Shown: positions 3,746-59,051, numbered from the whole stretch's first letter. The stretch is DNA of 61,873 nucleotides, filler included, from an uncultured virus (IMG/VR IMGVR_UViG_2049941000_000860) (12 parts of one record of this genome joined end to end with filler, not necessarily neighbours in it); one strand, 5' to 3'. The notes: generated by a model not told the origin, from the sequence alone. Numbers and translations are program-made.

Positions 3746-3865
3746 AACCGTGTTTCCTTTCCGTTAATGTTTTGAAGATGATCTTCTATATATAAAGACA
3801 GTTTTCAAGCCCAAAACGAGACAAATTCTCTGTTAATTCTTTTTTAAATCTTTCGCTTTTTCTGC

Positions 3866-3894
3866 ATTATACCATTTTCCAACTGCTTTTTCAA
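3866..3894 (-). promoter_or_regulatory. SigA-type promoter downstream of the integrase remnant
   Basis: TTGAAA-17bp-TATAAT with TG extension, just after the hairpin CCGGGC-AAAAC-GCCCGG (~3911-3927). Confidence 0.6.
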
Positions 3895-3954
3895 TCCAAA
3901 ACGCAAAGAATCCGGGCAAAACGCCCGGAACCGTCATAATTCCAGCCTGTCAGC

Positions 3955-4039
3955 CCTTCTCCCTGCTCCCGAACACTTCTCCCATGTTCACCGTCGCCTT
4001 CTTCAGCATCTCGTCCCTAACGTGCGTGTAGATGTTCGC
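3955..4039 (-). pseudogene. Orphan integrase 3' end
   Basis: ANIYTHVRDEMLKKATVNMGEVFGS, joined without a gap and out of frame to an unrelated short ORF starting at 4079. Confidence 0.7.
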
Positions 4040-4164
4040 CGAGTCCAGGCTTGTAATATCCTTTCTTCTTGCTTGTCATAATCAAGGCCTCCTATGAATT
4101 ATTCTTCTATCACAGAAGGCCTCGGTTTTCTCTTGTTTACAGACTTTTCTTCTCATGCTCGCAT

Positions 4165-18745: not shown

Positions 18746-19227
18746 TGAAGCGTACGTTTTCCACGATCCCCAGGGCAACCCTCTGTCCCAGGCAACGTTC
18801 AAGCGCATGTGGTGCCGGATGATGGCGGACGCGCGGTGCGCGACGGTGCGGGACTACGACCCACATGCCGAGAAGAACTGGGACATCCTGAAACAGGTCA
18901 AGCCGACGCTGACGCCGCACTTCCTGCGTCACAATTACGTAACGCTCCTGTACGAAGCCGGCGTCGACCCGCTGATCGCGATGAAGATCGTCGGCCACAC
19001 GGACTACAAGACNNNNNNNNNNTACGCTGACGCCCCACTTTCTGCGGCACAATTACGTGACCCTTCTGTACGAAGCGGGCGTCGACCCGCTGATCGCGAT
19101 GAAGATCGTCGGCCACACAGACTACAAGACCACAGCGAACATCTACACGCACGTGCGGGACGAGATGCTGAAGAAGGCGACGGTGAACATGGGCGAGGTG
19201 TTTGGGAGCAGGGCAGAGAGTGGATAA
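18746..19227 (+). CDS. Tyrosine integrase C-terminus (two overlapping allele fragments)
   Basis: PHFLRHNY, IVGHTDYKTTANIYTH (catalytic His and Tyr), stop at 19227. Confidence 0.9.
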
Positions 19228-19304
19228 CAGAAGATATGGTAGGACCCTGGGCGGTGCCTGGGGCTCTTTTTCGTTATGTGCATTCTAAAACAGTTATTCT
19301 GTTC

Positions 19305-19333
19305 TTGACTTTTATGGGTTAAATCGATATAAT
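19305..19333 (+). promoter_or_regulatory. SigA promoter for the cargo gene
   Basis: TTGACT-17bp-TATAAT after the integrase terminator-like hairpin (~19241-19271). Confidence 0.7.
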
Positions 19334-19395
19334 TTAACATAGATTGGCAGTGCCTGAAACAAACTAGTGCAAAGGGAGCGAGAGGAGTTTAACTT

Positions 19396-19479
19396 ATGTA
19401 CGCTGTAATGCTGCCATCCTTCGCAAGCGAGCAATCAGGCGTAACTATGCCCATTTGTGCTATCAGGGAGAATTTGTAA
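19396..19479 (+). CDS. 27-aa leader/small ORF
   Basis: AGAGGAG RBS; MYAVMLPSFASEQSGVTMPICAIRENL*; terminator immediately after. Confidence 0.4.
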   Translation: MYAVMLPSFASEQSGVTMPICAIRENL

Positions 19480-19482
19480 CGC

Positions 19483-19509
19483 GGTACGTTTGCCGTGCCT
19501 TTTGTTTTT
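19483..19509 (+). terminator. Intrinsic terminator/attenuator in the leader
   Basis: GGTACG-TTTGC-CGTGCC followed by TTTTGTTTTT. Confidence 0.55.
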
Positions 19510-19541
19510 GGATCAAATCACCGAACGGGAGGATGATTGAT

Positions 19542-19952
19542 ATGACGTTCAAACGATTTATCGCCGTGGCGCTGTCTCTGCTATTGCTGCTAGGCGCGTT
19601 GCCGGAAATGCTTCCTGCGGCGCTGGCTACACCGTCCACCGACGGCTGTACCAAATCTTCAGACGGAAAACACGCCTGGTACCCGAGGCCCAGGGATCCG
19701 TGGTGCGAAATATCAGGCGGACTGGTCTATATCTGTTCCTACTGCAACAAACAAGTCTTTGAAGAAACCACGCCCGCGCTGGGGCATGACTGGGGTGCGT
19801 GGAAGACCATCACGGAAGCTTCCTGCACGAAGGAAGGACTCAAGGCCCGCTCCTGCAACCGCTGCGGCAAACGCGAAACAGAAAACATCGGTTATGCACA
19901 CCAGTACGGCCCATGGGAAACGGACATTCCCGGCACCTGCATCGCAAAGGAG
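19542..19952 (+). CDS. Secreted Cys/His-rich surface protein, N-terminus (allele 2)
   Basis: GGGAGG RBS, signal peptide MTFKRFIAVALSLLLLLGAL, PSTDGCT, PALGHDW repeats. Confidence 0.75.
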
Positions 19953-19962
19953 NNNNNNNNNN

Positions 19963-42329: not shown

Positions 42330-44677
42330 GCTCCGGGAGCAGCCGTTTCGGATATACAGGGTCGTACCCGAGTTGAATAAGATCACGGTTTATGCCCGGC
42401 ATATCTTTTATGACCTGCTGGATAATTACATAAAGGAATACAGTCAGGGACCGGATGATCGCGGTGCGGAGGTGGTAAAGGGCATCGGCGCAGCAACGGA
42501 AACACCGACAGACTTTGCATTCTATTCCGACCTTATTACCACGGTCGATGAATTCTCTGTCGAAAACGCCAATCCCATCGAAGCCTTTCTCGGAGACGAG
42601 GGTGTCGTAGCCACTTTTGGCGGGGAACTGGCCCGGGACTGGTATGACGTGTATATCGTCCAGCGTGTAGGCGAAGATACAAGCATCGAGATACGGGAAG
42701 GCAAGAACCTGAAAAGTGTTTCCTATGACGTGGATACCACAAACGTGATCACACGTATCGTTCCGACAGGAGAAACGTCGAAAGGTAAAACGCTCTATCT
42801 CCCGGAACTATATGTTGACAGCCCGAACGCCGGAAACTACGATCATCCGAAATGGACGCATCTGGCCGTTTCCGATGTCAAGGAAAGCAGTAAGCTGAAA
42901 CTGAACGCCTGCTATGAAAAGCTGCGGGAGGCTGCCCAGGCTGAGTTCGATAAGGGCTGCGATCAGCCGACGGTCACCGTTACTGTTGACTTTATAAACC
43001 TTTTCGATACTGAGGATTATAAGGATTACGCCTTCCTGCAGAATATCTTCCTTGGCGATGCCGTAAGGGTTATAAGCAAACGGCTGGGCCTTTCCGTCTC
43101 CATGCGCATGACGCAGTACACGTACGACTGCCTGAAAAAGCAGTATACGAACATGACGCTGGGCACTGTTGCGGACACATTGGCAGGTAATACGATCACA
43201 GCTGCACAGCTGCCCACAGGTATCATTTCCGGCAGCAAGCTGGCGATCAATTCTGTGGGCACCGGAGCGCTGCAGGACGGAGCAGTAAAGAGCGCAAACA
43301 TTGATGTTGCGGCTATCGAGACAGCGCACATACAGGATGCGGCAATTGCGACGGCCAAAATAGCAGATCTGTCTGTGACGAGCGCCAAGATAGCAGATGA
43401 AGCCGTTACCAACGCCAAGATCGAGAATGCTGCTATTGACAACGCCAAAATAGCGGACGCTACGATCGAAGGGGCGAAGATCAAGGACGCAGCAATCACT
43501 ACAGCAAAGATTGACGATGCTGCGATCACCCGGGCGAAGATAGCCAACCTCGCAGTCGGCGAAGGACAGATCGACAATCTTGCTGTTACCGCCGCCAAAA
43601 TAGCCGATGCCGCAATAACGAACGCGAAGATTGCCAACGCGGCGGTCGATACGGCCCAGATTGCGCTGGGCGCTATAACGGCAGCTCTAATCCAGCAAGG
43701 TGCTGTGGGCACGGTGCAGATTGCCGATGCCAGTATCACGGAAGGCAAGATTGTCTCCCTGAACGCCGATGTCATCCAGTCCGGTACACTGGCGACGGAG
43801 CGGTTGATCATTACAGGGGCAGACGGCCTCATATACGAGATAAATGCCCAGAGCGGCACACTGACCACGCAGGAACTGAGCCAGGCAAAGTACCGNNNNN
43901 NNNNNTACTACTACAGAACCCGGCGTCCTGGCTCCAAACGACGGTGCGCTTGCACACATTACCTTGAAGAATACCGGCAATGTGGATCTGAAACCAATGA
44001 CATGCTATAGTTTTCTTGATGGCTATAACAATGCTTATATTTGGCCTGTAATGAATCCTGATGACGAAATACCGTTTGATGTCGGTACTTCACCGCTGAC
44101 GAACCATCTGACTCCCGGGTCAGAGACGGCAGAGCTGCTGGGCACTGTCGCTGTAACCTGCTGGGCCGTCGGTTATGNNNNNNNNNNTGGAAGTGTGCTT
44201 GTTGCTCGTTCTGTCACCGCTGAGCAGATCACCGCTGCGACAATAACCGCGAATGAGATTCTATCGGGGACGATCACCGGCGACAAGATAGCCGCAGCTA
44301 CCATCGAGGGCAGCAATATAAAAGCCGGAACGATCACCACGTCCCACGTTGCGGCCAATTTCGGGGAGCAACTCGATCTGTCATCCAACAGGGGCATCAA
44401 CCTGAGGGTGGGCGCGATCGAGGACGACGTTAGCGCACTGCAGGAGAGCAGCGTAGCCGGCGTAGTTGTGCAATACGCTTTGAGCACATCCTCTTCGACT
44501 GCCCCCTCACAGGGCTGGTCAGCCAACGCGCCGCCCTGGGAAGACGGGAAGTTTATGTGGCAAAAGACAGTCACCACATACGCTGACGGCTCCACAGACG
44601 AAAGCGATCCCACCTGCCTTTCGGGAGCGAAGGGCCAGGACGCGACGGTGCTCCGGATCGATTCCTCGCGTGGGACC
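42330..44677 (+). CDS. Tal/endopeptidase-type tail spike protein with IADAAITNAK repeats (fragments 42330-43895 and 44188-44677)
   Basis: VYARHIFYDL, ITRIVPTG, LGDAVRV; 10-aa periodic repeats; WEDGKFMWQKT. Confidence 0.8.
43906..44177 (+). CDS. Ig-like repeat fragment of the surface protein
   Basis: LKNTGNVDL...LTPGSETAELLGTVAVTCWAVGY. Confidence 0.55.
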
Positions 44678-44802
44678 NNNNNNNNNNCACGATTTGCCAA
44701 TTCGTACCTGGCTGTTTTGCTAACGAGTGATACAGTAGAGACAACCTTCGTTGGGCATGCATAAGGTATGCCAATTTGCGCGAAACTATTGATGGTATCT
44801 CT

Positions 44803-45056
44803 CTAATCTGCCTCGATTATTGTATCAACATAAATGTGTTTGCTTCTCGCTTCGTAAAAAAATGTGTATTTTGCGCCTTTCAAAAGCCTATCTTGCAGAA
44901 ATTGTGCTTCTCGTAATGTAGCATAGAATAACTTATATGGCTTTTGATCACCAGCATCAAAAGAGAAACTATTACGGCCTCGCATATATGAGTACTCAAT
45001 ATATGTTCCCGTAAATTCTTTGTTCTCCGGATGGATAAATATCATAAATTTGACAG
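44803..45056 (-). CDS. AT-rich hypothetical protein, 3' part
   Basis: Open frame to the stop at 44803. Confidence 0.4.
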
Positions 45057-45066
45057 NNNNNNNNNN

Positions 45067-45443
45067 CGCCGCCTTCGCGTTTTCCAGCTCCCTCTGGCTC
45101 TGGGCGGTAACGTATTTCTTGATCGGCTTGCCGTCCTGATCGGTGCCGATACGCACGGAGCCTTTGTACTTCTTTTCGCCCATGTTCATGCCTCCTTCGC
45201 CTTGCTGGCCCACCTGCCGACCTTTGCGGCGGCCAGGAACTCACCGCGGCTGATCTCGCCCTTCGGGTGGGATTTGCGCGTGCGGGCGGCGTAGTTCACC
45301 ACGGTCAGGTTCTCGATGTACTCGCAGATGGAGCGTACGTCCACGCCGTGGCCTACCCGGCGCAGGCGGCCTTCCTCCATCATCCGCGCGATGGTCCTGG
45401 GGACTACGTTCAGGATCTTCGCGGCCATCTTCTGCTCACAGAT
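45067..45443 (-). CDS. Excisionase-like HTH protein (45186-45443) and integrase N-terminus (45067-45189)
   Basis: AAKILNVVPRTIARMMEEGRL; YKGSVRIGTDQDGKPIKKYVTAQSQRELE arm-binding domain. Confidence 0.75.
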
Positions 45444-45453
45444 NNNNNNNNNN

Positions 45454-45607
45454 GTCGCCTTCCGGAGCATCTCGTCCCGTACGTGCGTGTAGATGTTCGC
45501 TGTGGTCTTGTAGTCCGTGTGACCAACGATCTTCTCGCCCTTCCATGCGATTCCCCCGGCTTCCACCCGATTCTGCCAAAATCGATCCACGCAGAAAGCG
45601 ACGGATA
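45454..45607 (-). other. att-arm-like sequence joined directly to an orphan integrase 3' end
   Basis: 45548-45607 is the reverse complement of ~58935-58995; 45454-45534 encodes KIVGHTDYKTTANIYTHVRDEMLRKA. Confidence 0.65.
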
Positions 45608-45641
45608 GTGTGGATTATTGACCGCTTACACTCCTCTTCTA

Positions 45642-45910
45642 TCACATAACATTTAAAAACCTGTACATTAATATAGTGCTAAGTAGCACACCGCCAAATG
45701 CACTTATTCTCTTAAGATCTATTATACTAAAGCCATATCCTTGACTGCAAGAGACAAGAATAATTAGTAAAAGGGAGACTGTAATGTATTCTATTAAGAC
45801 TACTCTTGACCCACAAGGATAGGTATCTTCGATATCACTCATTGCATATTTGAAGATTATGCCAAGTCCTAGTATCGAATGTAGAAATGCACTTTCTATA
45901 AGTATATATA
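45642..45910 (-). CDS. AT-rich membrane protein, possibly degenerate
   Basis: Hydrophobic stretches; low GC. Confidence 0.35.
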
Positions 45911-46207
45911 AGATCTAAAGCCGCACTAATCATAAAACTCCTCGTATTATATTGATGTAGTACTTATAGACCTCTCNNNNNNNNNNNNNNNNNNNNNNNN
46001 NNNNNNNNNNNNNNNNNNNNNNNNNNNNNNNNNNNNNNNNNNNNNNNNNNNNNNNNNNNNNNNNNNNNNNNNNNNNNNNNNNNNNNNNNNNNNNNNNNNN
46101 NNNNNNNNNNNNNNNNNNNNNNNNNNNNNNNNNNNNNNNNNNNNNNNNNNNNNNNNNNNNNNNNNNNNNNNNNNNNNNNNNNNNNNNNNNNNNNNNNNNN
46201 NNNNNNN

Positions 46208-47173
46208 GTGCACCCTGTCGTAGTCCACGTTGGAGTAAAAGTCAAGGATGCAGCCGGGCGCATACTGTATCATTGCGTGACCCATATGGCCGCTGCGTTT
46301 ATGTGCCTGGTGATTCACAAAGATCCGAGGCTCTGTAAAGCGATAAGACTGTTCCATGCCGCTACCTCCGGTAGAATCTTTTTCTGCTCCACATATTATA
46401 CTGCGCGGTCTCTCTTTTTGCAAACAAAAACCGCACACGAAGCGCGGCTTTTGTTCGGGATTTTTTATTCAAAAATGTCGTTTTCCCGGAACTGCAGGGA
46501 GTAAAGCTTTTTGTACGTGCCGTCCAGCTTCATGAGCTCTTCGTGCGTGCCCTGCTCCTTGATGCGTCCGTTTATGACCACGGCGATCTCGTCAGCGTTG
46601 CGGATGGTGGACAGCCGGTGCGCCGCTACAAGAGTGGTCCTGCCTTTGCACAATTCGTCAAGGGCGTGCTGTATGAGCACTTCCGTTGTGTTGTCCAGGG
46701 CGCTCGTGGCTTCGTCCAGTATCAGAATGGCGGGATCTTTCAAAAACACGCGAGCGATGCTGAGCCGCTGCTTCTGGCCGCCGGAGAGCTTCACGCCCCT
46801 CTCGCCGATCTNNNNNNNNNNNNNNNNNNNNNNNNNNNNNNNNNNNNNNNNNNNNNNNNAGAATCCATCGTCATATCCTCCGTCAGGTGTTTTCCACCCA
46901 CATATGCATGATGTTCACCCGGTTCAAGTCATATACGTGTGAAAACTGGATCAACAGCTTTCTTTCTTCCGCAAGGTACAGGTTGTTGGAGTAATATCCG
47001 ACGCCCGGGCCGGGCCTGCGTATCACCACTTTGCCGTCGTCCCAGTGCATGCCGTCCTCGGAATGGTAAATCACCAGCCCGTCGCCCTTATCTCCGTTCC
47101 GCCCGTGCAGGAACCATCCGTCGGCGGTGCAGGCGATCTGCGGATTGCGGATAAGCTGCTTAAAATATCCGTA
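46208..47173 (-). CDS. Host fragments: sialidase-like protein (46208-46357, 46883-47173) and ABC transporter C-terminus (46465-46811)
   Basis: SEDGMHW Asp-box; LSGGQKQR...[10 protein letters not shown]...AHRLSTI. Confidence 0.75.
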
Positions 47174-47384
47174 NNNNNNNNNNNNNNNNNNNNNNNNNNN
47201 NNNNNNNNNNNNNNNNNTTAATTAATTAANNNNNNNNNNNNNNNNNNNNNNNNNNNNNNNNNNNNNNNNNNNNATTTTCCGCGCCCATTCCGTGACACTT
47301 TTCCGGTCTGACCTTCCCAGCCTTGCATTGAGTGGAAAAGATTGATAATATGCGTGTGTTTTGCGTCGTTCTTTATTTCATCGC

Positions 47385-47867
47385 TTATTTTTCTTCTAAG
47401 CTCAGTATTACCCGGTTTTTGTCGATCTCACAGATGAGCTGGTCTCCGACAACAATCAGTTCCTTTCTCCACGGATGCCCATACAGACCCACAGACCAGT
47501 CCTTTGAAACAAAGAAGTAATAATCACCATTAGGATAATATGTGGGGAACCAAACCTCGTAGTTTCTTTCCGCGTCAAAATAATGATAGTCGACAGGTAT
47601 CCATTCATTGGGATTGTAAGCGAAGCAAGTATGCTGCCAATCCAGAGCATACATTTCTTCATTGACAACTTTGCATAGAATCTCATTTATCAGAGACTCT
47701 TGTTTTTCGTTCCAAATATATCCTGTATCTTTTATACGATACTTTTTTATTGTTCCCTTGGGCATTAACCATTCCTTGGCCTTATCATATGGATGTGGGA
47801 AAAACTTATACTCATCATAGAGCTTATCCCAAATTTTTTTATACTCTTCCTGCGTGATAATACGCAC
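47385..47867 (-). CDS. DUF2716-like protein (immunity-like)
   Basis: MYALDWQH, YYPNGDYYFF, GHPWRKEL. Confidence 0.7.
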   Translation of the reverse strand: MRIITQEEYKKIWDKLYDEYKFFPHPYDKAKEWLMPKGTIKKYRIKDTGYIWNEKQESLINEILCKVVNEEMYALDWQHTCFAYNPNEWIPVDYHYFDAERNYEVWFPTYYPNGDYYFFVSKDWSVGLYGHPWRKELIVVGDQLICEIDKNRVILSLEEK

Positions 47868-48062
47868 AATTGACCTCCTATTATCGTTAGTTGCTTTTCT
47901 CCACTTCGCGTATTGTGCCGTAATAAGGAAGAAAGTGGCTTGATTTTGCTTATTTCACTATACAATCCCTTTTCCGCGCCCATTCCGTGACGCTTTTCCG
48001 GGCCAGCTGCCCCTCTCCTTCGCATTGGATTTGCGCGGAAAAGGAAGTATAGGAGTGGAATT

Positions 48063-48674
48063 TCAAGAATCAGCGGCACCTTCTTCAAATAGGTATTCCG
48101 GTATATAATCCGCTCCAATATAAACGATATAAACGATTCTGTGCCGGTTTATCAGATAGTAGATTTCAGTGCTGCCCAAATCCCAAGCATGGATTTTTCC
48201 GTCAAGGGAAGCATAGGTCTCCTGTGCCTGTTCGAGGCTGAGTGGCTCATTTATGACATGGCATCCGTGCATCAACACAGTTGCTGGATCAGCGTTTGGT
48301 TCGCCGTACAGCCTCTTCAATTCGCCGAGAATGAATGTACAGTCATCACTTGAAACGTTTGCAATTTTATACTGGCCGCAGACCATTTCATCCGTGTCTG
48401 CCTTTATGCTGATGTGAACATCGGCTTTAAAGCAGCTCACTGGCATATAGTTATCCCAGCCCAACGTTTCAATACCGTTCCAGATGATTCTTTCACCGCA
48501 TAAATCCGCGACAGTCTTGCCCATGTTCGCAGTGATCTCATCGCGATGTGCCCCCCATGAAAAACCGCGGAAGCCTTGCGGATCACCGATTTCGCCATGT
48601 TCCTCTCCAAATACAAAGATAGTGGTGCTCAAGCATATCACCAACGTAAGCAGTAAAGCACCCACCCTTTTCAT
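48063..48674 (-). CDS. Secreted hypothetical protein
   Basis: Signal peptide; GFRGFSWG...YGEP motif. Confidence 0.7.
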   Translation of the reverse strand: MKRVGALLLTLVICLSTTIFVFGEEHGEIGDPQGFRGFSWGAHRDEITANMGKTVADLCGERIIWNGIETLGWDNYMPVSCFKADVHISIKADTDEMVCGQYKIANVSSDDCTFILGELKRLYGEPNADPATVLMHGCHVINEPLSLEQAQETYASLDGKIHAWDLGSTEIYYLINRHRIVYIVYIGADYIPEYLFEEGAADS

Positions 48675-48881
48675 AATCTTGCTTCCTTTCCGTTTATGTT
48701 TTAAAGATAATCCTCATATAGACAGTTTCCCCCGCCCATTCCGTGACACTTTTCCGGGCCAGCTGCCCCGCACCTTCATCTCATCTTGCGAGAGATATGG
48801 GAGATTATGGATTTGCATGTAATGTTTAAGCTTCAGGTATTCCACAGAGTCAGGGAAACAGTCTGGATTGATATCCGGTTA

Positions 48882-50474
48882 TCATTGATGCTGAGATGTG
48901 TACCGGTCAGAACCGAACTCGCTTTTATCAAGCAGAACAGCTATGACAGGGCGGATGCCGAAATGTTCGTTTGTGATACCTGCATCTAAACTTATCCTTC
49001 CAAATCGATTGATGCTGGCTTCACAATTTGTGCTTTTACCTAGGGAGCGGAGCCACCAAGGGCATGTCCCCACTCCGTCAATGAAATACTCATCGTCTTG
49101 AGCCGCGCCCTGCGCTGTCGCGTATTTCGTCGGAATGCACATGCGGGCTTCCTCGTTGGCAAAATAACGCCCGGCTTCCGTCGCGCTGAGCAGAAAGACC
49201 CTGTCCCGTATGATGTTTGCGCTTCCTGCCCCGATGTCAGACACGTTTTCCGTTTCAAGATCAGTAATCAGGATGGCGGCTTTCTCTTCCTCCGAGAAGG
49301 CGGCGCGGTAAAAACCTTCATTGAGCCATGCCCTCAGAGAACTGTCTTCCCAAGTAAGCGTACTGTACAGAGATACCTGTCGTTCATTAAACCGTCCGGC
49401 GTCCAGTATGTATTTGCTAATGAGCAGCAGGCTGCCATCATCTCTTTTATCCAGTATGATCCACTCGATGGGTTCTTCGCCGTTTTCTGCGTAATCGTCC
49501 TGCTCATATCTACCGAAGCAGATCGTCCCAAAAGGGTTGTCAAACAGTTCCGCACCGTCAAAATACACCCTGCGAGCTTCATAACTGTCAATAGCATCGG
49601 CTATGGGACTTGCATCAGCATATACCGGCCAATCTTCGTCCTTGTTGTTGGACGCACCGAAATACCCAGCAAGTCGACCGTCATCAACGATATAGAATAT
49701 ACTGAATATTCCGTTTGAATTGCTGTAATATTTCGTGCCAAACGCCGATATGAGTTCGCCGTAAGTGGCGGGTTCGCAGCTGTCGAACAGTTCAGCGCTG
49801 AGCAAGTCCATGCCCTCATTGCAAAGCAGCACACTGGAAAGGCTGAATCCAACTGCCGCTGTAACCATATCGTTTTTAATTTGATATGCGATATATCCGT
49901 CTTCGCATTTTAGGAAACCGATGTATACTGGTCTTCTGGGACGATCCGGGTATTCCTTGTCCAGTTCGCGGAGTTCTTTTCCAATCATGTTTTTTATACG
50001 CTTCCGCATGGCGTCCACTTCCCAGCGCGACACGAGCCAGCCGGGCCTTTGCACAGCATTATCCTCGACCCATTTGCCATCGCTGCAGCACATCGCAAAG
50101 ATGCCAACGTCGCCGGATTGCAGCCAGATGTCATGGCTGTCCCTATCCCAACAGATGCCCCAAAAATCAAGCATGCGTCCGGCGCGGAACACATCTACCG
50201 TTTCCTCACTCTGGACGTCCCGGATGTAGACATACACCATATCCACCGGGTCGCTCTCGCGCTTTTCTATACTCTGCACGGCTTCGTACCTGCCGTCTGA
50301 GCTTTGGCTCGGTAAATATGTAAAACTGCCGAATTCCGCAAAGATCTCTTCGTCAGTCGGCACATAACTACGTATATAAAAATCGAACCAGTTGCATGAA
50401 GTATCCTTTTCAGCGGAACCGACTGTACCGGTGCAGAACAGAAGTAAAAGCAGCAAGGCAGCCATCCTTTTCAT
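48882..50474 (-). CDS. Secreted multi-domain protein with C-terminal DUF6273-like domain
   Basis: MKRMAALLL signal; FGRYEQD..EPIEWIIL..WEDSSLRAWLN..VFLLS..WWLRS..GIRP. Confidence 0.75.
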   Translation of the reverse strand: MKRMAALLLLLLFCTGTVGSAEKDTSCNWFDFYIRSYVPTDEEIFAEFGSFTYLPSQSSDGRYEAVQSIEKRESDPVDMVYVYIRDVQSEETVDVFRAGRMLDFWGICWDRDSHDIWLQSGDVGIFAMCCSDGKWVEDNAVQRPGWLVSRWEVDAMRKRIKNMIGKELRELDKEYPDRPRRPVYIGFLKCEDGYIAYQIKNDMVTAAVGFSLSSVLLCNEGMDLLSAELFDSCEPATYGELISAFGTKYYSNSNGIFSIFYIVDDGRLAGYFGASNNKDEDWPVYADASPIADAIDSYEARRVYFDGAELFDNPFGTICFGRYEQDDYAENGEEPIEWIILDKRDDGSLLLISKYILDAGRFNERQVSLYSTLTWEDSSLRAWLNEGFYRAAFSEEEKAAILITDLETENVSDIGAGSANIIRDRVFLLSATEAGRYFANEEARMCIPTKYATAQGAAQDDEYFIDGVGTCPWWLRSLGKSTNCEASINRFGRISLDAGITNEHFGIRPVIAVLLDKSEFGSDRYTSQHQ

Positions 50475-50669
50475 AATCCTGCTTCCTTTCCGTTTTTGTT
50501 TTGAAGATGAGCTTCTGTAAATAAAGCCACTTTCCCCGCCCATTCCGTGACACTTTTCCGGGACAGCTGCTCCTCTCCTCGCCCTGCGCGGGAAAACGGA
50601 GAGGAACAATTTGTTCTTCCGTTTGCGTTTACAATAGAATCTCGTTAGTCTTATTCGCTNNNNNNNNNN

Positions 50670-51008
50670 CTCTGACCCATTCGTATTAAAAGATTCACTG
50701 AGAAGATATAACTTTCCTTCATCCGGGACGATAGTTGTGAACGAGTGCGGATAGCTGTTGATCAGTATATCCGTTTTACCGCTCTGTCTGTCGATCCGGT
50801 AAACGCTGAAAACAGTACTCCACCAATCCCATTCATCCTCAAACCATCCGTTGGCAAGGTAGATGTATTCTTCATCCCATGCAAGAGAATTACAGCCGCC
50901 CGATTGTTCATGATAGCAGTTCTGATCCGCACTTGAATTAAAAGCAAGCGCCGTTGGCAGGCAAGCCAAAATCAGGATTGCCGCAATGGTCGTCAGCGTT
51001 TTTTTCAT
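50670..51008 (-). CDS. Secreted beta-propeller-like protein (5' part)
   Basis: Signal peptide MKKTLTTIAAILIL; GGAGG RBS; repeat copy upstream. Confidence 0.6.
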
Positions 51009-51107
51009 ATCGTTGTTCCTCCAATGAAGATATACTCAGGAAATCAGAGTTATATCCTTCGTCAATAAACAAGCCATTTTCCGCGCGCCCATTCCGTNNN
51101 NNNNNNN

Positions 51108-51394
51108 CGGATTATGTGGAGCTTCAGGTGACGGTGAATAAAGCGCCTTCCTCTATCAAGCTGAACAGAAAGACCGTGGAAATGCTGCCGGACAGCGAGT
51201 TCGTCCTGACCTGCACTTTGTCCAAGGGCAGTTCCGGACAGGTCACCTTTTATTCTGCCAACGAAGACGTGGTGACCGTGGATGACAGCGGAAAACTGAA
51301 AGCCGTCGCTCCCGGCACAGCGCAGGTATTCGCGGAGACGTACAACGGCAAAAGCGACCGCGTGGACGTCACAGTACTCACCCCTCCGCCCGCC
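51108..51394 (+). CDS. Bacterial Ig-like (Big_2) domain fragment
   Basis: SANEDVVTVDDSGKLKAVAPGTAQV...TYNGK. Confidence 0.75.
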
Positions 51395-51404
51395 NNNNNN
51401 NNNN

Positions 51405-51549
51405 GCACAAAGGATATGAGCTCGGCTTTACCATCCCGCAATCTTCGATAATGGGGAAACGTTCCTTTGAATCCAACTCCACGAAGTTCCGGAATCACAA
51501 TCAGTTTCAATTCAGCTTGCATTTTAGTCCACTCAGGTGACTGTGCCAT
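51405..51549 (-). CDS. DUF4304-like protein (5' part)
   Basis: VIPELRGVGFKGTFPHYRR; repeat copy upstream. Confidence 0.6.
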
Positions 51550-51761
51550 GATACCTCCATTGATGTGACAGAAAGCTCAAAATTCGAACTGTTTCCGCGC
51601 CTATTCCGTGACACTTTTCCAGCCTGTCTGCCCCTCTCGCCTCGCATTGCGCGCGAAATAGAAGAGGGTATCGTCTCATTTGCGAATTCCTGTAATTAAT
51701 CCAGAACTGGTGCATTACCAGCATCCATAATGAAAGAGCAGACATGCCGTGCCGATCAAGA

Positions 51762-52719
51762 TCATCCCGCTTCAGAATCCCAGTCGTCCTGATCCGTTAT
51801 TGAAACATTACTCTCAATGTGGAACATGTCGATCATTCTTCCGCCATGCTCATCAAGGGTAACATACCATATATACCCATCCTCATCCGGAATAATTAGT
51901 TCGACAGTGTATACAGCTTTCTCTTCGTTATAGCTTATGCTCATGGGAACGGGCGGTTCGTTGCCGGATTTATAATTGGCGTCAAGCAGAGCGCTTGCAA
52001 GTATTGCTGCATGTCTTGCATCAATATCGTTTGTGTAGGCATCATCATTGTTATACTTGAGTTCCTGTTCGGAAAAATCGTCCCTGCTCAGCGCATGTGT
52101 GCTGGTTAAGTTGCGCTTGACCGAGCCATCTGCAGCATCGATAATTTCCATATTGTACAGATCTGGATCGTTGATGATTTCGCCGTTGCCGATATGGACG
52201 CAATAAGTTTTATTATATTCAATACCACTGTTGTCCGTAAAGAGCGTATCGAGCTTCCAAAGCAGGATACGGCTGTTTTCTACGAGCGCGGCTTTTCCTA
52301 GACGCCAATTGTCCCATTCACCCTGCTCGCAGTTTACGGCATCATCATGCGGTATGATGCACACGTTTGCGTATCCGTCCGTCATCTGGTCAAAACTGTA
52401 AAAGTCTTCTGAAACTTTCCGTCTCTCATGTGTGTTTACATCTATCTCCAACATGCAGTATTCCTTGCTATCCCACAGATACAATTTGCCATTTAGAACA
52501 ACGTACCAGTACTGATTAGTGTGAGTGTACGTCTTATTCATCTTGTCGTTGAACCCACTGAAGAGCGTTTGGCTTTCACCATTCGCATTCACGCGGCAGA
52601 TCATGTCGCCATCTAATAAATACAGCCAATCATCTTCGATGATGGGTTGGCAGACATATCTGTCGTTTATGATTTTTGTCTTGGCCGAGTAAATTGTTTT
52701 TGCCTGCATGGTCTCAGTC
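51762..52719 (-). CDS. Extracellular beta-propeller-like protein (3' part)
   Basis: 315+ aa open frame; DWLYLL and GKLYLW blades. Confidence 0.55.
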
Positions 52720-52765
52720 NNNNNNNNNNNNNNNNNNNNNNNNNNNNNNNNNNNNNNNNNNNNNN

Positions 52766-54980
52766 TACGGTGACAGTGCCCGAAAGTGTGCCTGTCTGGC
52801 CGTAACTGTCCGTCACGGATATCGTGTAGGCAATGCTGCCGCTTACGGTGATCACACTGAGCGTTCCGCTGTTGCCGCTGAGCGTATAGGTTTTATCTCC
52901 CAATGTGAGCACACGACTCTCGTAACCAATTCCGCTGTCAGCGCTCGTATCGAGGGTGACGCTGAAGCTTATGGTCGGTATCGTTTTCCCGGCTATCAGA
53001 TTCCCGTACGTGCTGATATGGCTCGTCCCGCTCTCGCCCCAGGTNNNNNNNNNNACCGGCTGAGATGCAGGGAGCGACGTTCAATTCCGCAACGCTGACA
53101 TACACGGTCTCCTCGCCCAGCGGAACACGGTATGTGCGCTATAACGGTGAGAGCGTCAGTGTGGGCAATAACAACCTGCTGGAACGCCTGATAGCGGGCG
53201 GCAATCTTGATCTGTACTTTTCGTACAAGGCTACGGGCGGCACCGGCGGGGAAGGCAGCCACAGCGCTTCGTGTACGTGGACGAATATCTCCATAGCCGT
53301 AGACTATACGCCTGCGGCGGGTATCACGAATACTGTAACGGTGACGAATGCCGGCACAGCTGTCTATTCCATTGAGAAGAAGTCACTTGCTTACGGTGAA
53401 AGCTGTGCGTTTACCATAACGGCAAGGCCCACAGTGGCCATAACCCGGGCCACGGCGGAGATACGACCCGGGTCACTTTCATCCGTAGCGACATATACCA
53501 CGGACAAGAGCATCGCAGCCAACGCGGCGTCTTCGCTGTCCTACACGCTGCAGATCCCGGCGGCAATGAATACCGCGATGTCTAGCCGTGTGTATGCTGC
53601 CCAGATACGGGTATCGTTCCTGGGAGCAAACGGGACTACATACACCTCAGGCTGGGTGTCGGTCACCAATGCCGCCAACTCGCAGGCGTTCAATTTGCTC
53701 AAAAGCAGGACTGCGCCGGTGATCAGCGGTGTCACCTGGGGCGAGAGCGGGACGAGCCATATCAGCACGTACGGGAATCTGATTGCCGGAAAGACTGTGC
53801 CGACCATAAGCTTCAATGTCACCCTGGATACGAGCGCTGACAGCGGAATTGGTTACGAGAGTCGTGTGCTCACTCTGGGAGAAAAGACTTATACGCTCAG
53901 CGGCAACAGCGGCACACTCAGCGTCATAGCCACAAGCGGGAGCGTTTCCTTCACCATCTCCGTGACGGACAGTTACGGGCAGACAGGCACACTTTCAGGC
54001 ACGGTTACGGTATTGGCCTACACGACGCCCACGCTCAGTGGAGTGGCAATAAGCCGGTATGTGAGCAGCCTGAACACGCAGGGCCAGACGGTGTATGAGT
54101 TGGACGATGACGGGACGAGCCTATGGTTCGACGCAGCGATCACGGTACAGACAACGCTCGGCAGCGGAACGAACAAGTGGACGCTGCGTATAACACCGAG
54201 CGGAGGCAGCATGATCAGCGTTCTGATCAATTCGAGCCTTGCAACCAAAACGTATACGCACGNNNNNNNNNNATACGAGCTGGATGACGACGGCACGAGC
54301 TTGTGGTTCGACGCGGCGATCACTGTACAGACGATGCTCGGCGGCGGAACGAACAAGTGGACGCTGCGTATAACACCGAGCGGTGGCAGCACGATCAGCG
54401 TTCTGATCAATTCGAGCCTTGCAACCAAAACGTANNNNNNNNNNCTCCGAACAGGCACAAAGTGCCGTCGAATCCACTGTCAACCAGCTTTTTCGCCGCG
54501 CAGCCCAGATTAAGCACGATGCGCTCCCCGGTCCTTCGTGTGTCAAGCCCNNNNNNNNNNCTTCACCGTCGAGCTGAGCGATCAGTTTACCACGATCACG
54601 TATTCGGTGAACGTTCCCAAGGCAGGCGGCATATTCAACATCGAAACCACGGGTGTTGCGGTGGGCATGAGGAGCACAGGCACTGACGCACAGCCGCTGT
54701 TCCAGTCCGCCTATCCCGCGCACTTCCTCGGCGGGGCGTACGGCGCTGACGGAAACAGGATCGATGTAAGCGATGACACCGGCTGGCAGGCATTGACGCT
54801 GGTGAACAGCACGGCATACGACAGCACAACAACACCTATGGCCCGACGGAGGAACAAGGTGATCTACATCAAGGGCGCGATCAAGCTGAACGCAACGCTC
54901 TCCTCATACGCACAGGGCGCGGCCCAGAGAACGCAGATCGGTACGCTGCCGACAGGCATCCTGCCGGGTGACAATTACCA
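52766..54980 (+). CDS. Tail fibre/receptor-binding protein fragments (52766-53044 is an inverted allele piece)
   Basis: Ser/Thr-rich beta domains, VTDSYGQTGT, DTGWQALTL...IGTLPTG. Confidence 0.7.
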
Positions 54981-55772
54981 NNNNNNNNNNNNNNNNNNNN
55001 NNNNNNNNNNNNNNNNNNNNNNNNNNNNNNNNNNNNNNNNNNNNNNNNNNNNNNNNNNNNNNNNNNNNNNNNNNNNNNNNNNNNNNNNNNNNNNNNNNNN
55101 NNNNNNNNNNNNNNNNNNNNNNNNNNNNNNNNNNNNNNNNNNNNNNNNNNNNNNNNNNNNNNNNNNNNNNNNNNNNNNNNNNNNNNNNNNNNNNNNNNNN
55201 NNNNNNNNNNNNNNNNNNNNNNNNNNNNNNNNNNNNNNNNNNNNNNNNNNNNNNNNNNNNNNNNNNNNNNNNNNNNNNNNNNNNNNNNNNNNNNNNNNNN
55301 NNNNNNNNNNNNNNNNNNNNNNNNNNNNNNNNNNNNNNNNNNNNNNNNNNNNNNNNNNNNNNNNNNNNNNNNNNNNNNNNNNNNNNNNNNNNNNNNNNNN
55401 NNNNNNNNNNNNNNNNNNNNNNNNNNNNNNNNNNNNNNNNNNNNNNNNNNNNNNNNNNNNNNNNNNNNNNNNNNNNNNNNNNNNNNNNNNNNNNNNNNNN
55501 NNNNNNNNNNNNNNNNNNNNNNNNNNNNNNNNNNNNNNNNNNNNNNNNNNNNNNNNNNNNNNNNNNNNNNNNNNNNNNNNNNNNNNNNNNNNNNNNNNNN
55601 NNNNNNNNNNNNNNNNNNNNNNNNNNNNNNNNNNNAGAGGTGCAGATGGTCCGGAAAAGTGTCACGGAATGAGTGCGGAAAAAGGCTGATAATGTTAAAG
55701 CCATCCTCTCCGTTTTACTGCGCAAGGCGAGACGAAGGGAAGAAAAGCCGACCTTTTGTCACATCACCAAAT

Positions 55773-55855
55773 GTCCGTCCATGACTTACATTTTAGACAA
55801 TTCCGGTCACAGACCGTCATAGGCGCACAAGAATCCGGTGGTATCCGAGTGGATC
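55773..55855 (+). repeat. att-arm-like sequence (copy of 58877-58959)
   Basis: GTCCGTC..TGAC..TTAGACAATTCC.GTCAC.GACCGTCAT..CGCACAAGAATCCG..TCCGAGTGGATC. Confidence 0.7.
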
Positions 55856-55883
55856 AATAGGGTGAAATGAGTTTGTCTCGAAG

Positions 55884-56110
55884 ATTCCGGGCAAATGCCC
55901 GGATTTCTTTGTTTTTGGGACGTTGCGGAGCGGGAGGGAGTGTGGTATAATAGGGGCAATCAAAGCATAGGCTACAGCACCAAATGTAGGCTTCTTCAGA
56001 ACAAACATATGAAAACGATCTTTGATACCCTGGTTTTGCCAGCCTTTCGCGAAAGACCGGGTCTCTACATCGGTGCACGTGATCTCCAAACTCTTGAAAC
56101 ATGGATGCAG
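55884..56110 (+). other. Terminator, SigA promoter and 5' end of a cargo gene (ATG at 56009)
   Basis: CCGGGC-AAAT-GCCCGG hairpin; TTGCGG-17bp-TATAAT; MKTIFDTLVL..RPGLYIG. Confidence 0.5.
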
Positions 56111-56733
56111 NNNNNNNNNNNNNNNNNNNNNNNNNNNNNNNNNNNNNNNNNNNNNNNNNNNNNNNNNNNNNNNNNNNNNNNNNNNNNNNNNNNNNNNNNN
56201 NNNNNNNNNNNNNNNNNNNNNNNNNNNNNNNNNNNNNNNNNNNNNNNNNNNNNNNNNNNNNNNNNNNNNNNNNNNNNNNNNNNNNNNNNNNNNNNNNNNN
56301 NNNNNNNNNNNNNNNNNNNNNNNNNNNNNNNNNNNNNNNNNNNNNNNNNNNNNNNNNNNNNNNNNNNNNNNNNNNNNNNNNNNNNNNNNNNNNNNNNNNN
56401 NNNNNNNNNNNNNNNNNNNNNNNNNNNNNNNNNNNNNNNNNNNNNNNNNNNNNNNNNNNNNNNNNNNNNNNNNNNNNNNNNNNNNNNNNNNNNNNNNNNN
56501 NNNNNNNNNNNNNNNNNNNNNNNNNNNNNNNNNNNNNNNNNNNNNNNNNNNNNNNNNNNNNNNNNNNNNNNNNNNNNNNNNNNNNNNNNNNNNNNNNNNN
56601 NNNNNNNNNNNNNNNNNNNNNNNNNNNNNNNNNNNNNNNNNNNNNNNNNNNNNNNNNNNNNNNNNNNNNNNNNNNNNNNNNNNNNNNNNNNNNNNNNNNN
56701 NNNNNNNNNNNNNNNNNNNNNNNNNNNNNNNNN

Positions 56734-58717
56734 GCAAGCAGACGCCACGGCAGCGGACAGGAAGTCTGTAACCGTAGGGGCGCACAAACGCAAGGCGAAA
56801 CGAACGCTGGAGGAACTGTGCGCGGATCTGCCTGTGGAAGAGATCATATCCGACCTGCCCGAGAAGCAGAAGATAAGCGCGGACGGNNNNNNNNNNGAAC
56901 CCGGCTTAGTCTATTGAGAATTTAACATATATTCCCGAAAAAACCAAAAGGAATCAGTCGTACAGTCGTCGAAATATATATGTGTGCGCGGAGGACAAAA
57001 CCGCGTGAACATATGTGTGAAAGGACGGTGAGCGGCGTGGGCGAAGCGATGGTACCACAGGCGGTCGTAGACGCGCTTATACAGCAGATAACGTCGCTGC
57101 AGGCCACGATCGACCGGCTCACCGCGATCATAGAAGAAAAGAACCAGATCATACTGAACCAGAACCGTGCGAGATTCGGACAGAGCAGTGAGAAGCGCAC
57201 ATATATACTTAACGACGGTCAGCTGAGCCTGTTCGAGCGAGTCGGAGACGGAATAACGGATAAGGCACAGGCAGACGCTGCGGCAGAGGACGTGAAGTCT
57301 GTAACCGTAGGGGCGCACAAGCGAAAGGCGAAACGAACGCTGGAGGAACTGTGCGCGGATCTTCCTGTTGAAGAGATCATATCCGACCTGCCCGAGAAGC
57401 AGAAGATAAGCGCGGACGGATATCCGCTGAAATGTATCGGCATAGACGAAGTACGCACGGAACTTGTGCGGGAACCGAGCCGTATATTTGTGAGAAAGTA
57501 CTACTGCAGGAGTTACGCTGATCCGAGGGCGGAAGCCAGGACGGGTTACGCGGTGATAAAACGCGCGTATACACCGGCGCCGCTGCTGGAGCACAGTTAC
57601 GCGTCGGCATCGGTAGTGACAGACGTCATAATGAAGAAGTACGCGGACGCGCTGCCATTATACCGTCAGGAACAGATCTGGAAAAGGGAAGGCGTCGATC
57701 TCAAGCGCGGGACTATGGCTAANNNNNNNNNNGCAGATCTGGAAAAGGGAAGGCGTCGATCTCAAGCGCGGGACTATGGCTAACTGGGTGATACAGACCG
57801 CCGGAAAGTACCTGAGGCCCTTCAGCGACAGATTCCTGGAAGAATTACTGAAGCAGTCAGTGATACACGCGGATGAAACAGTACTGCAGGTGAACCGTGA
57901 ACCCGGAAGAGACGCCACTGATGAATCCCGCATATGGGCATACGCATCATCCAAGCGTTCGGAGAAACAGATAAGATACTTCCGCTACGAGGCGAGCCGG
58001 AAAGGCGCGTGCGCGGAAGAAGTACTTAGGGGTTTCAACGGAGTACTGGTCGCTGACGGTTACAGTGGATACAATGTGGTAAGCAGGGTCACCCGTGCCG
58101 GCTGCTGGGCGCATGCGAGACGAAAATGGCTGGAAGCCATGCCCAAAGAGGCGACCAAAGAAAACTCACTGGCCGCCAAAGGCCTCGAATACTGCTCAAG
58201 AGTGTTTGAATTGGAACGTGAATTCGAAAACCTGTCTGACGCCGAACGACGACGTCAGCGGCAGGAGCGTTCCAAACCAATAGTAGATGAATACTACGCC
58301 TGGATCGAGACGCTGTTCAAGCCGAGCGGAAAACTGAAAGACGCCATAACCTACGCCATAAGGCAGCGGGAATANNNNNNNNNNNNNNNNNNNNNNNNNN
58401 NNNNNNNNNNNNNNNNNNNNNNNNNNNNNNNNNNNNNNNNNNNNNNNNNNNNNNNNNNNNNNNNNNNNNNNNNNGGAGAACGCTATCCGACCCATCGTCG
58501 TAGGCAGGAAGAACTGGCTGTTCAGTGATACGCCTGACGGGGCACAGGCGAGCGCGGTCATATTCACTGTTTTGGAGACGGCAAAAATGAACGGTCTAAA
58601 CCCGGAAAAGTACATTGGACATCTGCTGACAGTACTGCCGGAGCGTTTCGCGCATGATCCAAAATCTTCGATCGACGACCTGCTGCCTTGGGCTGATGGG
58701 CTGAGGGAACTCTGCCA
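56734..58717 (+). mobile_element. IS66-family transposase TnpC (gapped, partly duplicated)
   Basis: RFGQSSE, KYADALPLYRQ, IHADET, ADGYSGY, GCWAHARRK, ENAIRPIVVGRKNWLF. Confidence 0.9.
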
Positions 58718-59051
58718 NNNNNNNNNNTTGATCTAACGCCGCCATCCTTGACAGAACCTTGAAAAACGCCAGATTGGAAGGTGCCGACGGCGAAGAACTC
58801 ATCAGCAAGACCGGTGTGTTTAGATTTATATGTTTCCGTGTCCAATTTTTGTTTACCATTAAGTACTTCAGCAAAAGTCCGTCTCTGACTGACATCTTAG
58901 ACAATTCCAGTCACTGACCGTCATAAACGCACAAGAATCCGTTGCTTTCCGAGTGGATCGTTTTGAGCAAAATCGGGTGGAATCCGGGGGAATCGAGTTT
59001 GAGGGCATAAAAAAGACCGGACTTGGATTGACAAGCCCGGACTTTATTACC

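Follow-up and report, generated by a model that had tools for sequence, protein, structure and literature searches.

Here we describe an array of small gene cassettes, separated by copies of a conserved repeat unit, in a 61,873-nt stretch of DNA from an uncultured virus (IMG/VR IMGVR_UViG_2049941000_000860). We refer to the whole of this stretch as the window, and to the most conserved ~30 nt of the unit as the core. Cassettes of this and related arrays stand beside different neighbours on different contigs, with the junctions in the core, and a phage-type tyrosine integrase gene (intact or as a 3′ remnant) together with a promoter marks the heads of such arrays. In our estimate there is roughly an even chance (about 0.5) that the array is a cassette platform which works like an integron or a rAID locus, its cassettes being mobilised through recombination at the core and expressed from the head promoter.

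A repeat unit in register with unrelated genes

The window is a pseudomolecule: it contains 11 joins of the form N44-linker-N44 (the linker being a 12-nt all-frame stop) and ~80 gaps of ten or more Ns. Many of its contigs are just 100–1500 nt long, and adjacency across linkers is uninformative. The 31-nt core nevertheless stands out, with six matches at three or fewer mismatches as against 0.00 expected (100 shuffles). Seven copies were found in all, six on the minus strand (including one partial) and one on the plus strand, on a single scaffold; the remaining ~47 kb of the window hold no copy. The units and the genes between them are as follows.

47276..47306, minus strand: core copy 1, 0 mismatches, adjoining the scaffold end; hairpin-like pyrimidine/purine part at ~47307-47350, just 5′ on the minus strand
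47385..47867, minus strand: cassette gene, 160 amino acids, DUF2716 (6.7e-30), no signal peptide
47971..48060, minus strand: unit 2, comprising core (47971-48001), linker and hairpin-like part
48063..48674, minus strand: cassette gene, 203 amino acids, signal-peptide-like N-terminus; no Pfam, PHROG or PADLOC family
48727..48815, minus strand: unit 3, core (48727-48757) and hairpin-like part
48882..50477, minus strand: cassette gene, 531 amino acids, C-terminal DUF6273 (1.1e-24), predicted secreted; the largest cassette of the window
50531..50625, minus strand: unit 4, core (50531-50561) and hairpin-like part CCTCTCC...GGAGAGG
50670..51008, minus strand: N-terminal fragment of a predicted secreted cassette protein; the contig stops at a gap
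51080..51097, minus strand: partial core, 3′ half, cut by the N10 gap 51098-51107
51110..51394, plus strand: Big_2 Ig-like fragment on a 287-nt contig that lies midway along the array scaffold and is oriented against the array
51406..51549, minus strand: N-terminal 48 amino acids of a DUF4304-type cassette protein, the first 40 residues being the start of a cassette protein of locus L089
51592..51668, minus strand: unit 6, core (51592-51622) and hairpin-like part
51765..52718, minus strand: 318-amino-acid open reading frame (ORF), presumed cassette gene, which ends shortly before unit 6 and is truncated at its 5′ end by a gap
55651..55745, plus strand: core copy 7 (core 55651-55681), on a small contig of uncertain orientation

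An initial annotation of this DNA had read the ungapped stretch 47274-50659 as repeat-gene-repeat-gene-repeat-gene-repeat, with mutually unrelated genes, and on a minus-strand reading both statements are borne out. The further copies that it placed before the genes at 51008 and 51549 and near 55636 correspond to the partial core at 51080-51097 and the cores at 51592-51622 and 55651-55681. Minus-strand cores lie 50–110 nt 5′ of the start codons of unrelated genes, and each core contains three CGGAA direct repeats spaced 13 and 11 nt, exactly as first described. To the 5′ side of each core there is a pyrimidine tract, CGCGCA..GCGA, a purine tract and the linker GGCAG(A/C)TGGSCC. Of the gene labels proposed earlier, DUF2716 and DUF6273 were recovered by Pfam and DUF4304 stands by way of the L089 relative, which matches that family (3.6e-6); the beta-propeller label is not borne out, the 318-amino-acid ORF having no significant Pfam match and no significant family.

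The array scaffold begins precisely at core copy 1, and three of the seven copies adjoin gaps or the scaffold end, which indicates that the repeat broke the assembly of the window. Order and orientation past 50659, including those of the lone plus-strand copy, are insecure, and the Big_2 contig is probably misplaced.

The unit is clustered and conserved in sequence

An exact degenerate pattern with 17 specified bases returned 57 stretches from the genomes of 185,579 species, about as many as expected by chance on our own estimate. The full core was present in just three metagenome-assembled genomes (MAGs) of that search: two labelled 'Clostridia bacterium' (from goat and sheep) and one rumen 'Lachnospiraceae'. 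The initial annotation had named genome-wide scatter of the repeat as evidence against cassettes; instead, the three whole MAGs contain 9, 3 and 3 copies, all within one to three tight clusters each, and BLAST with the whole 117-nt unit found nothing significant outside the array clusters in these MAGs. The arrays occupy different chromosomal places. A sample of 401 genomes from the order of the query MAG yielded the core once, in that MAG itself, on which the search was centred, and there was no match to the core in 2.9 million viral contigs. Metagenome contigs yielded 96 stretches, mainly on short contigs bearing one to three copies, and DNA runs from 11 studies, mainly of bovine gut, contain parts of the window stretch.

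The collected set comprises 123 distinct core copies. Positions −2 to +35 are near-invariant (1.5–2 bits almost throughout), with ~27 contiguous near-invariant positions within the core; the search pattern spanned +3 to +22, so conservation there is partly due to ascertainment. Conservation is moderate across the purine tract and linker (−20 to −3) and in the tail AGGGCTTATATAGTGTAA (+29 to +46) and absent from the remainder, and a TATAGT/TATAAT-like motif lies ~8–10 nt past the core in roughly half of the copies (+36 to +41, consensus 0.49–0.55). Orientation is uniform within 73 of 74 loci, the sole exception being the window. In each of the 58 distinct complete core-to-core cassettes (471–2574 nt) the longest ORF is on the array strand, with a median coverage of 81%. 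Arrays also differ in composition from their surroundings: their GC content is 0.416–0.475, that of the flanks 0.567–0.609, a drop of 12–15 points.

The variable part of the unit had been described as a GC hairpin. What remains of this description is a moderately conserved pyrimidine/CGCGCA..GCGA/purine segment: as a conserved structure the hairpin is not sustained, given a mean folding energy of −12.9 kcal/mol (z −1.1) and the lack of covariation reported below, and column-wise pair counts found only a 3-bp inner stem, in about one third of the units. Pairing of the pyrimidine tract with the 3′ end of the core was rejected as an element-specific feature, since the arm-to-arm duplex energy within elements (−14.6 kcal/mol) is not appreciably stronger than that between elements (−14.07 kcal/mol; t = −1.3). 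A search of Rfam (E up to 1, window 44000-58000) gave no match at the units and only a weak Thr-leader match elsewhere.

Two further sequence features concern the core. A second conserved leader of 62 nt (AGGTCTTGATCAGTT...CCCAGATATTGT) lies 3′ of it at L057 15106-15170 and at eight other loci; the leader has its own small stem, ACGGT/ACCGT (lengthened in one variant), and precedes at least six different genes. At L058 10040-10110 (minus strand) a core is split by ~31 nt of unrelated sequence with GGAA at both insertion edges (GTCACGGAA ... GGAATGGGCGGGGAAA), which may be the footprint of an aberrant event within the core.

Cassettes reassort with junctions in the core

Compared in pairs across different contigs, 24 share the upstream side only, 26 the downstream side only, and a single pair shares both (duplicates not removed). 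Upstream families present on at least two contigs almost always (8/9) have more than one downstream partner. The limits of the shared blocks coincide with the core: after de-duplication, their downstream limit lies between +29 and +38 for 15 of the 18 pairs with a common upstream side (outliers −49, +46 and +60), and their upstream limit between −13 and +7 for 18 of the 22 pairs with a common downstream side (exceptions −52, −32, −22 and −21). Core positions 0–2 track the upstream side, and positions from +29 the downstream side.

Whole cassettes behave in the same way. Nine cassettes were found whole on at least two contigs: their upstream neighbours are unrelated in eight cases, and so are the downstream ones in every one of the nine pairs that could be measured. 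The 203-amino-acid cassette of the window (48063..48674) is present whole at locus L095, where its neighbours are different. When contigs of four other runs were compared with the window, the loose ends clustered at cores, and contigs of three further studies part from the window there; on one, a 2553-nt DNA contig of run X5, the DUF6273 cassette (with 5 differences) is followed by 718 nt that are unlike the window past core 3. A joint in X5 that skips 658 nt was set aside, one of its sides being just 27 nt long. Neither a fixed cassette order nor breakpoints away from the repeat, both of which the initial annotation would have counted against its proposal, is what we see: neighbours change in eight of nine upstream families and eight of nine whole cassettes, and most shared-block ends fall in the core. 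Cassettes have thus been reassorted, with junctions in the core.

Array heads carry an integrase gene and a promoter

At locus L058 of MAG G001 an intact gene for a 376-amino-acid tyrosine integrase is followed by a terminator hairpin with a T-run, the promoter TTGAAA-N17-TATAAT, ~4 nt, the core and two cassettes. Upstream of the integrase gene are endolysin and tail genes, and the array head lies at the prophage end. The earlier placement of the array at the end of a Clostridia prophage therefore holds for this locus of one MAG; in the window the prophage is on a different scaffold from the core array.

Eleven other contigs bear pieces of the integrase, mainly its last ~45 residues, as does the window at five places, and the same terminator-promoter module stands 3′ of the remnants wherever downstream sequence could be read or matched. 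The hexamers of the head promoters, TTGAAA/TTGATA-N17-TATAAT, are sigma-70-like. In five heads the promoter is followed by the core, each time with a different first cassette. In ten heads it is followed by a 59-nt segment, the second half of which is a diverged core that lacks the CGGAA repeats and reads TGTCTCGTTTTGGGCTTGAAAA where the core reads TGTCACGGAATGGGCGCGGAAAA. Heads and internal units have only the core in common, and homology for exchange between them is no more than ~30–45 nt. A hybrid of the left half of a head site and the right half of a core, considered at core 3 of L057, proved ambiguous on alignment and was not used.

Within the window, a head-type module lies on another scaffold, and fragments of the integrase gene lie elsewhere.

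3802..4042, minus strand: head-type module with integrase 3′ remnant (3953-4042), terminator hairpin with T-run, promoter and diverged core (3823-3802)
TTGAAA 3894-3889, 17-nt spacer, TATAAT 3871-3866, minus strand: promoter of this module; a predicted secreted-protein gene follows the module
18747..19212, plus strand: integrase fragments (amino acids 258-373), 97–100% identical to the L058 array-head integrase; no core follows

A neighbouring window scaffold carries tail genes and the integrase N-terminus. The association with a tyrosine recombinase that the initial annotation had assumed is accordingly present at the heads, as an intact gene (L058) or as 3′ remnants, with the qualification that the enzyme is of the ordinary phage type and not IntI-like.

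Integrase remnants also occur in a different setting. On contig C14 of G001 (L147, 2072-13974) 3′ remnants are present three times, 4.5–5.3 kb apart, downstream of a tmRNA gene and with no core. They lie between genes of large predicted secreted proteins (524, 845 and 1586 amino acids; Cys-rich zinc-ribbon-like, Ig-like repeats), a layout comparable to that of window 19150-19960, and may define a second kind of array bounded by integrase remnants.

A model for cassette movement and expression

In the platform that we envisage, a cassette consists of one ORF, starting with the 3′ part of a core and a short leader and ending with the pyrimidine/purine hairpin-like segment, the linker and the 5′ part of the next core. 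Co-oriented cassettes, having no sigma-70 promoters or terminators of their own, would be read as a polycistron from a single sigma-70 promoter at the head, situated just 3′ of the phage-type tyrosine integrase gene and its terminator. Discrete cassettes would be gained, lost and reshuffled by recombination inside the ~30-nt invariant core. The linked integrase would catalyse this recombination, acting site-specifically and in cis or in trans. Three things point in this direction: ~27 near-invariant bases, the shortness of the homology that heads share with internal units, and physical linkage. The arrays would occupy the cargo region between the integrase gene and the end of a prophage or integrative element, and may outlast the decay of that element; their cargo would consist for the most part of small proteins, secreted or in the membrane and of unknown function, alongside a few families of immunity type. 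As to the cassette-capture system originally proposed, the mobility of cassettes with core junctions is observed, while the site-specific nature of capture we infer.

Several observations weigh against this reading. The first set concerns the enzyme. The best family of the integrase is PHROG phrog_1 (1.4e-67), as for a typical phage integrase; it fails the integron-integrase model TIGR02249 (60 bits, cutoff 265) as well as NF011946 (28.5, cutoff 435) and the XerC/D models. Relatives 65–66% identical, from two viral-contig loci, lie at contig ends, and the one that has downstream sequence is without an array. Most arrays keep only integrase 3′ remnants, whose left ends vary (amino acids 318–345), and the distribution among genomes is uneven: G001 has one intact integrase and many remnants, G002 has only remnants, an intact close copy being absent, and G003 yielded none. 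Furthermore, the island of G002 borders a tRNA-Arg gene and the integrase remnants on C14 of G001 adjoin a tmRNA gene, so the integrase's own attachment site may differ from the core.

The second set concerns the site. By eye, the core contains no dyad-symmetric recombinase-type site save the 7-nt palindrome GTGTCAC. RNAalifold on 85 units returned only a 4-pair helix inside the core; in the hairpin part it gave no consensus helix, and covariation was absent. The crossover can be placed no finer than the core, and the polymorphic positions 7 and 23 of the core follow neither flank. The occurrence of the 62-nt leader before at least six different genes implies that junctions outside the core exist. 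Finally, all comparative data come from short-read assemblies, in which chimeric joins may form at repeats; the exact repeat, at ~30–45 nt, is shorter than an ordinary read, which argues against such joins here.

Alternative explanations

The most serious alternative, which we regard as less likely, is that the unit is a conserved expression signal between prophage 'moron' genes (a hairpin terminator, CGGAA activator sites and a TATA(G/A)T −10 element) or an RNA leader or processing site. Cassettes would then be shuffled incidentally, through homologous recombination or gene conversion between the units. Homologous recombination at a conserved unit would give the same mosaics as site-specific capture. 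The three CGGAA repeats at 13- and 11-nt intervals and the TATA-like motif in roughly half of the copies look like parts of a promoter, and the head, with its own promoter and a diverged core lacking CGGAA, is as expected if the repeats serve internal promoters only. The 4 pairs of 22 with breaks between −52 and −21, the 62-nt leader common to different genes and the polymorphic core positions unlinked to either side fit exchange that is not confined to one site. The ordinary phage integrase and the location of the arrays between integrase gene and element end, where prophage cargo usually sits, count in its favour too. A contig from an RNA library spans hairpin, core, tail and hairpin, a weak pointer in that the library may contain DNA. 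Yet a run of ~27 contiguous near-invariant positions is unusual for a promoter or an operator, where spacers may vary; a TATA-like tail is missing from about half of the copies, and neither a sigma-70 promoter nor an intrinsic terminator was predicted at any unit of the window. The regulon with a shared promoter that the initial annotation had offered as its own alternative is weakened as well, but keeps some probability. Independent transcription units would need no common orientation, whereas all cassettes are co-oriented; exchanges between heads and internal units had merely ~30–45 nt of homology to work with; and whole cassettes move with both ends at cores in eight of nine cases. As an RNA element, moreover, the unit belongs to no Rfam family and has no consensus structure.

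A second alternative overlaps with the platform model: the core may be the attachment-site core of an integrase-encoding temperate phage, and the arrays tandem accretions of att-flanked remnants that are mobilisable in trans. This we consider improbable. It draws on the contiguity of integrase gene, terminator, promoter and core, which resembles an attR junction, on the recurrence of integrase 3′ remnants in arrays and elsewhere (two in L057, three in L147), on the coexistence in G001 of one intact integrase with many remnants, and on the five heads joined to five different downstream cassettes. However, none of the 2.9 million viral contigs matched the core; the predicted attL form (hairpin, 5′ part of the core, phage arm) was not seen, all ten diverged-core segments following a promoter; and the integrase-bearing islands lie beside tRNA-Arg and tmRNA genes that have only 6–8 nt in common with the unit. 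The far end of the L058 prophage is off its contig, and no direct repeats were found to bracket the whole L057 island.

That the unit is a selfish interspersed repeat (of the miniature inverted-repeat transposable element, repetitive extragenic palindrome or BOX-like kind) or an artefact of fragmented assembly is very improbable, despite its hairpin-like part and the three of seven window copies next to gaps or the scaffold end, because its orientation agrees with that of the genes in 73 of 74 loci, it is nowhere dispersed (in the three whole MAGs every significant match falls within an array cluster), it shows no terminal inverted repeats or target duplications, and it recurs in the same architecture in independent MAGs, metagenome contigs and the runs of other studies.

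Comparison with known systems

Integrons and rAID loci are the main dedicated gene-capture platforms, and both have been described for Gram-negative lineages; to our knowledge integrons are not known in Firmicutes. A literature search of full texts returned papers on rAID and integrons, but no description of arrays such as these in Clostridia or Firmicutes. The present locus belongs to neither class: its integrase is not IntI, its site is not attC-like and its hosts are not Bacteroidales.

The resemblance to integrons is nonetheless extensive. The head has a tyrosine recombinase gene, along with a promoter next to a head-specific site, and co-oriented, mostly single-ORF and apparently promoterless cassettes of 0.5–2.6 kb lie between recurring sites and move as units. 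In contrast to integrons, however, the integrase is of the phage type and scores below the cutoff of the integron-integrase model; its gene runs in the same direction as the array; the likeness of the head to attI and Pc is no more than an analogy; what is conserved in the site is its sequence (a core of ~30 nt), with no covariation, whereas attC is conserved in structure and not in sequence; and the setting is the cargo region of a prophage or island in Clostridia. IntI has, according to the accessible text of one source, a characteristic insertion in its catalytic domain (PMC8138268).

The rAID-1 loci are defined, in the portion of the source available, by at least two co-directional short genes (~100–300 codons) with conserved intergenic motifs and a GC content below 41% (PMC12247911), and the available text of the sources describes them only for Bacteroidales (Ross et al.; 10.1101/471110, PMC12247911). 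The arrays likewise consist of co-directional short genes with conserved intergenic motifs. A tyrosine recombinase gene lies upstream and co-directional (intact in L058, as remnants on 10 other contigs), a likeness drawn from the published description, as far as available, and not from recombinase sequence. GC content is skewed relative to the genome and some cargo falls in immunity-protein families. The arrays differ in their GC content, which at 42–47% lies above the 41% of the rule as given in the available text, in their cargo, of which a minority is immunity-like, ~60% is secreted-looking and 32 of 47 proteins have no family, and in their hosts, Clostridia/Lachnospiraceae, which belong to another phylum.

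Two further systems invite comparison. In the moron or lysogenic-conversion regions of prophages, short conserved 'boundary' sequences promote modular exchange. The arrays share with these regions their place between integrase and element end, accessory genes of foreign composition and exchange at short conserved junctions; they differ in having a ~110-nt unit in register before every gene, an invariant core, strict orientation and whole-cassette mobility. We know of no moron region with such a register-repeated unit and whole-cassette mobility. Integrative and conjugative elements of streptococci undergo tandem accretion and give rise to cis-mobilisable elements, which, like the present cassettes, are small modules bounded by recombination sites without a recombinase of their own, with integrase remnants and an intact copy elsewhere in the genome. 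Here, by contrast, the modules hold single genes (~0.7 kb), form arrays of at least three and have a common head promoter, and the identity of the core as an att site is only putative.

A bolder formulation, which we advance tentatively and against somewhat unfavourable odds, is that Gram-positive gut anaerobes independently invented the integron: the integrase of a temperate phage would capture, excise and reorder cassettes at ~30-nt cores behind one promoter, in the cargo region of a prophage. A cassette array in rumen Clostridia whose phage-type recombinase and sequence-conserved site are both unrelated to those of the known platforms would show convergent evolution of the cassette architecture and would tie that architecture directly to prophage cargo regions. 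If the bolder formulation holds, phages carry an expandable stock of genes for secreted and immunity-type proteins and introduce it into chromosomes. The compact 30-nt site and its recombinase would also make a pair to try as a tool.

Cargo and associated elements

The cassettes encode some 50 small, mostly secreted-looking proteins of unknown function that are traded among rumen strains, and this trade makes them candidates for roles in interbacterial or phage-host conflict. A simple heuristic found a signal-peptide-like N-terminus in 28 of 47 distinct cassette proteins (~60%). A Pfam family was assigned to 15 of the 47 (32 had none): DUF6273, DUF2716, DMP19, Imm-NTF2-2, DUF5412, BlaR1 and PBP_like_2, together with DUF1963, LRR_4, WG repeats (twice), UPF0167, DUF4304 and DUF5640. 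None of 49 cassette proteins was matched by PADLOC and none of ten by PHROGs. DUF1963/YwqG and UPF0167/CbrC are presumably related to toxin immunity. Of the cargo described at the outset as secreted and immunity-like, the first attribute fits the ~60% that look secreted, and the second applies to a few families. One of them, Imm-NTF2-2, is listed as an immunity family in the available part of the source (PMC3482391).

Other cassettes and neighbouring elements deserve mention. At L057 12814-14840 (plus strand) a BlaI/BlaR1-type repressor-sensor pair forms a two-gene cassette (2574 nt) within the array. Just downstream of the array head of L128 (1098-2092, minus strand) there are an ORF of 189 amino acids with an RHS-repeat match and one of 143 amino acids; the two may represent an orphan toxin tip and its immunity gene carried as a cassette. 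DUF6273, the domain of the largest window cassette, also surfaces, in the accessible text of the sources, in literature on phage receptor-binding proteins and diversity-generating retroelements.

Core copy 7 is followed on its 3′ side by the tail GGCTGATAATG..., a second hairpin-like part and then the repeat that flanks genes for IS66-family transposases. These genes (56926-58717, plus strand) lie between two direct copies of ~80 nt (~55786-55860 and 58884-58960), and the same ~80-nt sequence adjoins integrase remnants in L107 and at window 45453-45614. An insertion sequence of the IS66 family thus seems to insert repeatedly next to array and integrase modules.

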